DNA from: an uncultured Bordetella sp.
GTDB taxonomy: Bacteria > Pseudomonadota > Gammaproteobacteria > Burkholderiales > SG8-39
DNA length: 64,000 nucleotides
Direction: 5' to 3'
Assembly: GCA_964564865.1 (NCBI GenBank)
Contig: CAZMDA010000002.1
Location: 33,375 to 97,374 of the forward strand
The position numbers were made by a program, and so were the translations under genes. Positions 36,366 to 39,300 of this stretch are shown one piece after another; position 1 is the stretch's first letter, and each line of letters opens with the position of its first letter. The notes beneath the pieces were generated by a model. It searched no databases. It was given only the letters and a program-made list of their open reading frames with translations, and was not told where the DNA came from.

Positions 36366-39300
36366 CCGGTCATCCTGCGCTCGGCGAGGAACGCCGAGAG
36401 GATGCGGCCGGTGTGGCCGCCGCTCTTGCCGGCGCCTTCGGGCGGGCCCTGGTAGACCACCTTGCCGCCCGCCGCGCCGCCCTCGGGGCCGAGATCGACG
36501 ATCCAATCGGCTTCCGCCATCACGTCCAGGTTGTGCTCGATCACCACCACGGTGTTGCCGGCATCGACGAGACGGTGCAGCACGCGGATGAGCTTCTCGA
36601 CATCGGCCATGTGCAGGCCGACGGTGGGCTCGTCGAGCACATACAACGTCCCCGAAATCAGGGACGGACCACGATTTCCGGATCCATTGCCCTTGCCGCC
36701 GCGCCGGAAATCGTGGTCCGTCCCTGTTTTGGCCAGTTCGGTGACGAGTTTGAGGCGTTGTGCCTCCCCGCCACTGAGAGTTGGGCTCTGCTGGCCGAGG
36801 GTCAGGTAGCCCAGGCCGGTGTCCTGCAGCAGGCGCAGGGCGCGGTGGGTGGAGGGATGCGCGGCGAAGAATTCCACCGCCTCGTCCACGCTCAGGTTGA
36901 GCACTTCGCCGATGGTCTTGCCGCGCCAGCGCACCGCCAGGGTCTCGGGGTTGAAGCGCAGCCCGCCGCAGGCCTCGCAGGCGACGCGCACGTCGGGCAG
37001 GAAGGACATCTCGATCTTCTTCATGCCCTGGCCCTCGCAGGACTCGCAGCGGCCGCCCTTGGTGTTGAACGAGAAGCGGCTAGCGGACCAGCCGCGCATC
37101 TTCGCCTCGGTGGTTTCGGCGAACATGCGCCGGATGGCGTCCCAGAAGCCGACGTAGGTGGCGGGGCAGGAGCGCGGCGTCTTGCCGATCGGGGTCTGGT
37201 CCACCTCGAGCACGCGCGCGATCGCCTTGGCGCCCTTGAAGGCCTTGCAGGCGACGGGCTTGCCGGCCTTGGCGCTGTTGTAGAGCACGTCGCGCGCGAG
37301 CGTGGACTTGCCGGAACCGGAGACGCCGGTGACCACGGTGAGGCGGCCCAGCGGGACGCGCACGTCCACGTTCTTCAGGTTGTGCAGGCTCGCCTTCACC
37401 ACCTGCAGCGCATCGGCGTTGCGCGGCACCGGGCGGCGCGGCTGCAGCGGGTGGCGCAGGGGATCCCTGAGGAACTTCCCGGTGAGCGAATCCGCGTGGG
37501 CCATGAGGTCGTCGGCGTTGCCGGCGGCGATGACCTGCCCGCCCAGCTTGCCCGCGCCGGGACCCAGGTCTATGACGTGGTGCGCGCGCCGGATGGTGTC
37601 CTCGTCGTGCTCCACCACCACCAGGGTATTGCCCTTGGCCTCGAGCTTCTCCAGCACGTCGAGCAGGATCCGGTTGTCGCGCGGGTGCAGGCCGATGGTC
37701 GGCTCGTCGAGGATGTAGCACACGCCGCGCAGGTTGGAACCGAGCTGCGCCGCGAGCCGGATACGCTGCGCTTCGCCGCCCGAGAGCGTCGGCGCAGAGC
37801 GGTCCAGGGCAAGGTAGCCCAGCCCCACGTCCGCGAGGAAGCCCAGCCGGCTCTTCATTTCCACCAGCAGGTCGCGGGCGATCTCCGCCTCGCGGCCCTT
37901 GAGGCCGCTGCCGGAAACCGCCTCGCCCAGGCTCGAGATGGGCAGGCCGCCGTAGTCGGCGATCGTCCTGCCCTTCCAGGTTACCGCCAGCGCTTCCGGG
38001 TTCAGGCGCCGGCCCTCGCATTCGGGGCAGGGCTCGTCCAGCTCCAGCCAGTCGATCCAGGAATCGAGCACGTGGTCCTCGGCGCCGGTCCTCGCGCGCT
38101 CGTCATCCCATTCCACTTCGTCGATCTTCACCCCGGTGCCGTAGCAGGCGGCGCACCAGCCGTGGCGCGAGTTGTACGAGAACAGGCGCGGATCCAGCTC
38201 GGCGAAGCTGCGGCCGCAGGATGGGCAGGCGCGCTTGGTGGAGTAGCTCTCCAGGGCCTTTCCGGCCAGTACCTGCACGCTGCCCTTGCCGAAGTCGAGC
38301 GCGGTGGCCAGCAGCTGGCGCAGCGCGGCTTCGCTGCGCGCCTCGACCTTTACCTCGCCCACCGGCAGTTCGATGCTGTGCTCCTTGAAGCGGTCGATGC
38401 GGGGGAAGGGCCGCACCGGCAGGAGCTTCCCGTCCACGCGCAGGTGGGCATAGCCCTTCGACCCGGCCCACTTGGCGAGGTCGGTGTAGACGCCCTTGCG
38501 GTTCACGATCAGCGGCGCCAGCACGGACACTGTCTTGCCGCGGTGTCCCTTCATGATGCGGGCGAGGATGGCCTCGGCGCTCTGCGGCTGGATCGGCACC
38601 GCGCAGTCCGGGCAGTGCTGCGTGCCCAGCTTCACGAACAGCAGGCGCAGGAAGTGGTGGATCTCGGTGAGGGTGCCGACGGTGCTCTTCCTGCCGCCGC
38701 GGCTGGTGCGCTGCTCGATCGCCACCGTGGGCGGGATGCCGAAGATCGCGTCCACGTCCGGGCGCGCGGCGCCCTGCACGAACTGGCGGGCGTAGGCGTT
38801 GAGGGATTCGAGGTAGCGGCGCTGGCCCTCTGAAAACAGGATGTCGAAGGCGAGGGTCGATTTGCCTGAGCCGGAAACGCCGGTTACCACCGTGAACCGG
38901 TTCCTGGGGATCTCAACATCTATGTTCTTGAGGTTGTGTTCCCTGGCTTTATGAATACTGATGGCGTTGCCTAGATACTTTCCGACTGCTTCGCGCGCCA
39001 TTGGCGCGCGAGGAGCGTTGCCGGCTACTAGATGCGCCGGCAACGATCTCGGGGTGAAGCTTTCTGCGTATTCGCGGAGGGCCTTGCCGGTGTGCGAGGT
39101 CGGGTGCTGCATCACATCGGCAGGCACTCCCTCACATACGATCTCTCCACCCGCATCGCCTCCCTCGGGACCGAGGTCGATGATCCAGTCGCTGGCGCGG
39201 ATCACGTCCAGGTTGTGCTCGATCACCACCATGGAGTGGCCGGCGGCGAGCAGTTGGCGGAAGGCGCGCAGGAGCTTGGCGACGTCGTCGAAGTGCAGGC

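Follow-up and report, generated by a model that had tools for sequence, protein, structure and literature searches.

A probable REPIN-like repeat carried in frame by a double UvrA-like gene of an uncultured Bordetella sp.

The palindrome and its host gene

The window analysed here, a stretch of 64,000 nt from an uncultured Bordetella sp. of the Burkholderiales (GenBank assembly GCA_964564865.1, contig CAZMDA010000002.1, positions 33,375 to 97,374), contains on its minus strand a gene for a double UvrA-like protein, whose last ATP-binding cassette (ABC) module carries a long palindrome within the coding sequence. The palindrome resembles REPINs, hairpins composed of two inverted repetitive extragenic palindromic sequences (REPs). 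Its features are listed below; L-numbers denote DNA loci or stretches, and P-numbers denote proteins.

36362..41866, minus strand: host gene, double UvrA-like protein of 1834 aa from the first Met, with two UvrA-like halves and four ABC modules
36652..36732, minus strand: whole palindromic element, REPIN-like stem-loop read in frame, delimited by its fold and by the match to the family consensus
36655..36681: arm 1, AAATCAGGGACGGACCACGATTTCCGG (plus-strand letters), 3' arm of the coding strand, read GNRGPSLIS, the NRGQTPI-type frame of the family
36682..36703: spacer or loop, 22 nt, variable among orthologs (identity to L001 11/22, to L002 4/22)
36704..36730: arm 2, CCGGAAATCGTGGTCCGTCCCTGTTTT, 5' arm of the coding strand, read TGTDHDF, the GSDPDF-type frame of the family
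36647..36652: hexamer CGTCCC, copy 1; on the coding strand GGGACG, the Gly-Thr codons before LYVLDEP
36719..36724: hexamer CGTCCC, copy 2, part of arm 2 and of the family's conserved core

The two 27-nt arms are 96% complementary and contain a perfect 23-bp core (36659-36681 and 36704-36726), with 22 nt between them. This core, enclosing its loop inside the coding sequence, had been described in the original prediction, together with two CGTCCC hexamers exactly 72 nt (24 codons) apart, and both observations were reproduced. The palindrome is the longest non-overlapping inverted repeat of the window; a 21-nt arm has no second occurrence there, and 0 matches were expected in shuffled sequences.

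The 92-nt region 36647-36738 has a folding energy of -54.9 kcal/mol when treated as RNA and of -33.3 kcal/mol when treated as DNA (z = -7.1 and -8.1, respectively); in neither case was any of 200 shuffles as stable. About 36652-36681 is paired with 36704-36732, so that the palindrome reaches past the arms first described; as the outer stem extends to about 36652-36732, one hexamer is part of an arm, and the second touches the outer stem or overlaps it. The element measures about 76-82 nt and encodes about 24 residues. Only generic long-hairpin matches to microRNA models, far below the gathering score, were obtained from Rfam, with no known RNA family, and a full-text literature search with the raw repeat sequences retrieved only unrelated primer matches. 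The terminator scan, which is blind to the long stem because the loop of the element exceeds 8 nt, flagged only a small alternative hairpin, CGTCCCTGATTTCGGGGACG; 2 hits were found versus 3.2 expected, which is not significant.

Within the protein, the element is located in frame between the LSGGEAQR signature and the Walker B motif of module 4, the last ABC module. The host open reading frame (ORF) is intact and retains all ABC motifs. The corresponding spacers of the other three modules are short, in agreement with the earlier remark that none of them has such a loop. The protein is identical to P0001, from a metagenome-assembled genome of Burkholderiales type at NCBI. Its C-terminal 430 aa match solved UvrA structures (9gxk, 2r6f, 3pih and others, with E down to 2.5e-165), and in the alignment the insert faces a gap of the solved sequences (ELSRKSTG-KTMYILDEP), at a position flanked by the signature helix and the Walker B strand. 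The position of the loop, which had been proposed for mapping on a structure model, could thus be placed by alignment; the AlphaFold2 (AF2) model of the C-terminal module, built with 10 close sequences, had a mean predicted local distance difference test (pLDDT) score of 49, too poor to be used. Judged from the alignment, the insert appears to lie outside the conserved UvrA fold.

History of the insert among orthologs

The best 120 protein matches to the host protein (P0001-P0120, 76-100% identity, annotated as UvrA of Burkholderiales/Betaproteobacteria) were taken as the ortholog set, and ortholog DNA was compared at nine loci. The spacer from the signature to the DEP motif is insert-free and 26-28 residues long in 83 of the 120 orthologs, compared to 27 residues in solved UvrA; the other 37 have 4-37 extra residues at the same loop, with several unrelated sequences.

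At the DNA level, every insert at the module-4 loop of the nine orthologs is a strong hairpin. One homologous hairpin is common to the window, L003 (P0002), L001 (P0003), L002 (P0006) and L004 (P0008), while the insert of L008 (P0005) is half deleted, with a single arm left. A shorter doublet, CGGGGTCAGACCCC-13 nt-CGGGGTCTGACCCCG, is found at this loop in L007 (P0048), and other stems are found in L006, L005 and L009.

Watson-Crick pairs are formed at 23/23 stem positions in the window and in L003, at 21/23 in L001, 18/23 in L002 and about 15/23 in L004, and double changes among these in-gene stems are located at positions 5, 7 and 15. The window and L003 are identical over the whole element (76/76), against 91.1% identity over the gene and 80.5% at third codon positions. 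When the window is compared with L001, 47/54 arm positions and 11/22 spacer positions are identical, and the comparison with L002 gives 41/54 and 4/22; the window and L001 inserts also have equal junctions and the same 22-nt spacer length. The series illustrates how such an insert ages: arms are kept or co-vary and the spacer is randomised, with decay, partial deletion or replacement following.

A neighbour-joining (NJ) tree was built from the 120 proteins after masking the insert. The window-type (type I) insert corresponds to one monophyletic clade (P0001-3, P0005, P0006-8 and P0014), within which P0004 is also placed, with a different, type II-like insert. Inserts of another type, lost several times, characterise a large clade adjacent to this one; P0048 stands separate, and no fewer than five gains or losses must be assumed on the tree to account for the inserts at this loop. 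Since the window-type insert marks a single clade, in which it is common by descent down to about 77-79% protein identity, comparison of the sequences indicates that it is old and inherited. The alignment of orthologs thus confirmed that the insert is clade-restricted, but spoke against a recent event private to one lineage, as had been implied, because the insert is clade-wide and is decaying in some members. Nor was the notion of a domesticated loop supported, as the encoded peptide is not conserved.

A dispersed family of palindromic repeats

Searching the arms in the ortholog loci revealed related hairpins at other places of that gene, as well as a single copy between genes, and the palindromic unit AAATCGGGGTCWGACCCCGATTT was consequently used for scanning the species genomes of GTDB, where at least 120 stretches were detected. 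Metagenomes were scanned with a degenerate two-arm pattern, CAGGGNCNGACCNCGNTYT-gap-CYGNCCCTG, again with at least 120 stretches detected. Among the metagenome matches listed, 123 elements share the arms AAAWCAGGGAC(A/G)GACCACG(T/A)TTTYC, followed by a variable spacer and by the inverse arm; the conserved arms measure about 25 nt, and the spacers differ in length and sequence. The outer consensus is ccS-AAAAW ... WTTTT-SGG, with a frequent outer extension, TTTYGGG. The window element agrees with the family at every conserved position, and its peptide, TGTDHDF...GNRGPSLIS, is a diverged form of the family peptide SGSDPDF...ENRGQTPIF. Two stretches, L138 and L178, have arms identical to those of the window; the L178 copy is intergenic, 41 nt past the stop codon of an ORF resembling, by eye, a nitrile-hydratase alpha subunit (VCTLCSC motif).

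Most copies lie between genes: 97 of the 103 classifiable copies of the window family (94%), among the matches listed, are intergenic, with a median distance of 8 nt downstream of a stop codon, and the sole uvrA among these 103 is L187, ortholog P0003. The genes flanking intergenic copies are in tandem in 35 cases, convergent in 15 and divergent in 9, versus a background of 87, 64 and 34, and divergent spacers are not clearly avoided. The hosts of the family are free-living, GC-rich soil and freshwater bacteria. The search for further copies, suggested as a check of the original prediction, therefore produced a dispersed family (at least 120 stretches in genomes and metagenomes), mostly intergenic; this family, and the intergenic copy with identical arms, bear out the proposal that the palindrome is a small, non-autonomous, REP-like dispersed repeat, carried in frame as an extra loop.

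The repeat is unique in the window, and the source is a metagenome-assembled genome, so that a local palindrome produced by template-switch inverted duplication, or an assembly artefact, with no mobile repeat involved, could be conceived. Both were rejected and are regarded as having a negligible probability, as the same element is present in independent JGI and ENA assemblies (L003, L001, L187) and hundreds of copies with the same arms occur in unrelated contexts.

The sequences retrieved by AAATCGGGGTCWGACCCCGATTT form a sister family. Among the matches listed, they come mostly from Burkholderiales (Massilia, Limnohabitans, Polaromonas, Comamonadaceae, Usitatibacter, Thauera), and the consensus over 244 units is aAAATCGGGGTCwGACCCCGATTT. 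Pairs of units with a distance of 25-55 nt are frequent, the arms of the window being 49 nt apart; 131 of 149 classifiable clusters, among the same matches, are intergenic. Two arrangements of sister-family sequences were observed in addition. At L077:5726-5966 (Massilia sp. TS11) five tandem 55-nt units, each composed of the palindromic repeat and of a conserved segment of about 32 nt, form an array which is plain tandem and not CRISPR-like, because its 'spacers' are identical. At L193:13876-13923, 11-mers with the core of the sister family, GGTCTGACCCC, are arranged in tandem, head to tail.

The two hexamers and the proposed target duplication

The two CGTCCC hexamers had been interpreted as a 6-bp target duplication. 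Under this explanation, the palindrome would be a transposable element of the miniature inverted-repeat class (MITE) with terminal inverted repeats, recently inserted by a DDE-type transposase with duplication of GGGACG, whose excision would restore the gene; the spacing of exactly 72 nt fits, as does the fact that removal of 72 nt keeps the frame. However, one hexamer belongs to the stem core of the family, CAGGGAC[A/G]GACC, and the other overlaps native Gly-Thr codons and the outer extension TTTYGGG of the family. The repeat is absent from the insert-bearing orthologs L001, L002 and L004, and in 119 family copies no flanking direct repeat exceeds 3 nt, a result equal to that of a shifted control. 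For these reasons the duplication is best read as a coincidence. Excision would leave a spacer of 24 residues, which is less than the 26-28 of each of the 83 insert-free orthologs and less than the 27 of solved UvrA, so that the picture of a clean excision restoring the normal spacer is not exact either. As the insert is also clade-wide and not recent, the MITE with target duplication was rejected as highly improbable.

Single-strand transposition by HUH/Y1 enzymes, such as those of IS200/IS605 and the REP-associated tyrosine transposases (RAYTs), leaves no target duplication. The lack of duplications would be expected under such a mechanism, a link that we infer.

Origin and maintenance of the insert

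The palindrome is very probably a copy of a dispersed, normally extragenic, REPIN-like repeat of Burkholderiales-type bacteria, carried by the double-UvrA gene as an old in-frame passenger. Insertion into the loop between signature and Walker B of the final ABC module would go back to the ancestor of the clade; the length and frame of the element left the ORF open, and it has since been carried as a non-conserved, Gly/Arg/Ser-rich loop, presumably at the surface. The protein would tolerate the loop through its exposure to the solvent, as suggested by the alignment to solved UvrA, by the general ABC fold and by the presence of inserts in 37 of 120 orthologs. Mobilisation may have occurred via a single-stranded hairpin intermediate, by means of a HUH/Y1 (RAYT-like) transposase. 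The perfect stem could be kept by concerted evolution, through arm-to-arm template-switch correction and/or conversion from extragenic copies, rather than by a function in the gene.

Several observations weigh against this explanation. The exposure of the loop is deduced from sequence alignment, the three-dimensional model being unusable because of its low score. The family consensus, AAAWCAGGGACAGACCACGTTTTYC, differs from the GTAG/CGTC superfamilies of REPs in carrying neither of these terminal tags; CGTC is found only in a minority G variant, inside the stem (GGTCCGTCCC). No transposase-like gene, RAYT included, recurs among the 566 ORFs flanking family copies; RAYT genes are normally single-copy in a genome, and their absence beside the copies thus says little. 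With neither a recurrent transposase nor a tag, the mobilisation mechanism can only be proposed. No other family copy was found in the 64-kb window, and about 190 kb flanking the nine ortholog loci hold no extragenic copy of this family and only one of the sister family, in L006, so that abundance in the source genome is unproven; several genomes in the GTDB scan carry multiple copies. Finally, selection on the hairpin could also produce the perfect stem and the conservation of the arms, which exceeds that of third codon positions.

The last point leads to an alternative in which the hairpin would be a functional intragenic element under selection, either as mRNA structure affecting translation, stability or transcription, or as DNA recognised by a protein, its origin from a repeat being secondary. 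Arms evolving more slowly than third codon positions next to a free loop, the 23/23 pairs of the window and L003, the double changes at three stem positions among orthologs, and an element identical at 76/76 positions between genomes whose genes are 91% identical are all compatible with function in cis. The same applies to the hairpins of unrelated sequence found at the same loop in other clades, and doubts that repair genes are hit by chance have been expressed for REPs (Di Nocera, De Gregorio & Rocco 2013, BMC Genomics 14:522; PMC3733652). On the other hand, 83 of 120 orthologs have no insert, and in relatives the stem has decayed to 18/23 and about 15/23 pairs or is half deleted. Among the imperfect pairs of the coding strand, A.C prevails over G.U (6 versus 1), and G.U exceeds A.C only weakly (30 versus 17, on the transcribed strand) in 62 oriented family copies, a suggestive difference at most. 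Moreover, REPIN populations show the same pattern of arms, spacers and compensatory changes with no host function (Bertels & Rainey 2011, PLoS Genet 7:e1002132; PMC3116915).

Variation within the family bears on the same question. At stem positions 5, 7 and 15, which were free in the search pattern, paired changes are about as frequent as single ones: position 7 shows 7 G-C pairs versus 8 half-changes, and position 15 shows 9 double versus about 14 single changes. The arm variants which separate the window from L001 (ACG/CGT versus ACA/TGT, and GAT/ATC versus GTT/AAC) are both standing among extragenic copies; conversion or concerted evolution would therefore explain them at least as well as selection on the in-gene stem. 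Maintenance by a function in cis is, on balance, considered unlikely.

Copies inside genes and the four sites of the double UvrA

About 6-12% of the copies of the two families lie in long ORFs with a coding-type GC content at third codon positions (GC3). One of these, L108, encodes the double-UvrA of a different lineage (BLASTP identity 64%); of the sites defined below, its site A contains KSGSDPDL and its site C contains ESGSDPDLS. By eye, from the translations, ORFs resembling HrpA-type helicases (L103, L105, L121) contain up to four in-frame sister-family units, four of them in a row at L103:7593-7740 (KLGSDPDLAQ...KLGSDPDFAQ...), and other unit-bearing ORFs resemble PolA (L064), MnmA, KdtA, a CoA-transferase, a penicillin-acylase-like protein and a biotin carboxylase. 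The ORFs among them that appear to encode nucleic-acid enzymes (L108 by BLASTP; L103, L105, L121 and L064 by eye) echo the published bias of intragenic REPs towards repair and replication genes.

Within the ortholog set, 57 recognisable family peptides were identified in 32 of the 120 proteins, and all 57 are located at four sites of the roughly 1800-residue protein. The sites, and a second palindromic insert of unrelated sequence found in the window, are as follows.

Site A, near residue 230: 16 peptide matches
Site B, signature-to-Walker-B loop of module 2: 20 peptide matches
Site C, linker between the UvrA halves: 10 peptide matches
Site D, signature-to-Walker-B loop of module 4: 11 peptide matches
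39013..39048, minus strand: second palindromic insert, site C of the same gene, arms GAGCGTTGCCGGC / GCCGGCAACGATC

Sites B and D occupy homologous positions in modules 2 and 4. Wherever a single unit occurs, its reading frame is that of GSDP, as in LAEKKMGSDPILFLFDEP, which directly abuts the Walker B motif of module 2. This restriction to four sites and one frame may reflect either targeting or simply counter-selection of insertions elsewhere and in other frames. At site C, four double changes distinguish the orthologous hairpins of the window, L001, L003, L008 and L009, which set the window and L001 apart from L003, L008 and L009. This grouping conflicts with that of site D, which hints at recombination or conversion.

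Three further observations concern these sites. A small palindrome (38991-39011) adjoins the site C insert of the window. At site B, L003 has a full hairpin with 24-nt arms (L003:12474-12545), L001 only the collapsed outer ends AAAAACAGGGTCCGTCCCTGATT (L001:12477) and the window nothing, states which look like a deletion series of a palindromic insert. The site D insert of L009 (P0004), a protein 90% identical to that of the window, is a double hairpin ending in ...ETPARSAGT and is shared with the distant P0023, which suggests replacement by recombination.

The hairpins of different clades could also result from independent, site-targeted insertions at an integration hot spot, the copies of the window and of L001 then being separate acquisitions. 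The presence at one loop of three or more sequence classes, the at least five gain or loss steps, P0004 with its type II-like insert inside the type I clade and the conflict between sites C and D are in line with this; in addition, the arms of the window and of L001 each match a different extragenic sub-variant, and different REPs are known at one recB site of Xanthomonas (PMC3733652). However, the inserts of the window and of L001 agree in their junctions, in a spacer length of 22 nt and at 11/22 spacer positions, type I is monophyletic, and no target motif was identified. Separate acquisition is thus judged distinctly improbable.

A broader possibility is that the four double-UvrA loops, and more generally genes for DNA/RNA enzymes (UvrA, and in the scans the ORFs resembling HrpA and PolA), are preferred or selectively retained sites for REP hairpins, with the stem acting in cis. 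The restriction to four sites and one frame, the slow arms, the perfect stem and the unrelated palindromes on the same loops are compatible with it, but the idea is speculative and unlikely. If true, the stem could tune the expression or the co-translational folding of a repair protein, or could be a site for the machinery of the repeat itself, coupling repeat dynamics to repair capacity.

Comparison with known systems

REPs and REP dimers located wholly inside ORFs have been described, the dimers often encoding 20-30 residues; intragenic REPs recur in uvrA (in Thioalkalivibrio, and in both uvrA genes of Opitutus terrae), uvrB, recBCD, polA, dnaE2 and RNA helicases, and two Xanthomonas species have different REPs at the same recB site (PMC3733652). 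The window element is similar in being dimer-like, in encoding about 24 residues and in residing in a UvrA-like gene, where different palindromes occupy the same loop, and other copies lie in ORFs resembling, by eye, HrpA helicases and PolA. It differs in its stems of about 23-27 bp, versus 5-13 bp, and in much more variable loops. The host is also different, being a duplicated, four-module UvrA paralogue of uncultured Burkholderiales in which four sites were mapped over 120 orthologs.

REPINs consist of two inverted REPs and a less conserved spacer, form hairpins and commonly show compensatory changes (PMC3116915). The family described here similarly has inverted conserved units with a free spacer, a long hairpin as single-stranded DNA or RNA, compensatory changes in the stem, no target duplication and many dispersed, mainly extragenic copies; the doublet hairpin and the compensatory changes are those by which REPs and REPINs are recognised. 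The definition of a REPIN also includes a cognate RAYT and a within-genome population, and the source genome is known here over 64 kb only. In addition, REPINs are described as extragenic, and the sequence is unrelated to the REPs of Pseudomonas and E. coli.

Rickettsia palindromic elements (RPEs) are found in frame in genes for functional proteins and also in intergenic regions (Ogata et al. 2000, after the summaries in PMC3733652 and PMC3184786). The window element resembles them as a palindromic repeat in frame in a functional gene, tolerated as an extra peptide, with the same DNA also present between genes. Taxon and sequence differ, and, according to these summaries, RPE-1 is longer (about 100-150 bp) and RPEs are enriched in the genes of a reduced, intracellular genome, whereas about 90% or more of the family studied here is intergenic. 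The host is of Burkholderiales type, and the Rfam and literature searches gave no sequence match, so that the element does not belong to RPE-1 to RPE-8 and the resemblance is functional only. Bacterial MITEs (Correia/NEMIS, ERIC, Nezha; PMC3184786) are likewise small and non-autonomous, form long stem-loops and sometimes fuse to or interrupt ORFs. Unlike them, the family has no target duplication in any of 119 copies, and no relative among insertion sequences (ISs) is known, these having been looked for only in the flanks of family copies.

An in-frame repeat in uvrA is therefore a new example of a known phenomenon and reveals no new mechanism. It provides an independent and well-resolved case of an extragenic palindromic repeat in a coding gene, uvrA being repeatedly hit, and brings with it a pair of related, apparently undescribed repeat families, widespread in Burkholderiales and soil metagenomes. 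The four loops mapped in a UvrA paralogue with four modules, whether permissive or targeted, are relevant to the study of both REPs/REPINs and the tolerance of proteins to insertions. For annotation purposes, the finding explains odd peptides of the GSDP, GTDH and NRGQTP types in double-UvrA proteins.

Other inverted repeats of the window

Two smaller inverted repeats were noticed elsewhere in the window. A perfect 18-nt inverted repeat, TCGCGCCGGCGGCGAGCA / TGCTCGCCGCCGGCGCGA, is located at 17384-17401 and 17428-17445, with a 26-nt loop; it is kept at the orthologous locus (L001:24782-24843), inside an ORF for a GMC-oxidoreductase. A palindrome built on ATGTAACCGATCGGTTACAT has two copies in the window, 13302-13339 and 27350-27397, and may be operator-like or another small repeat.

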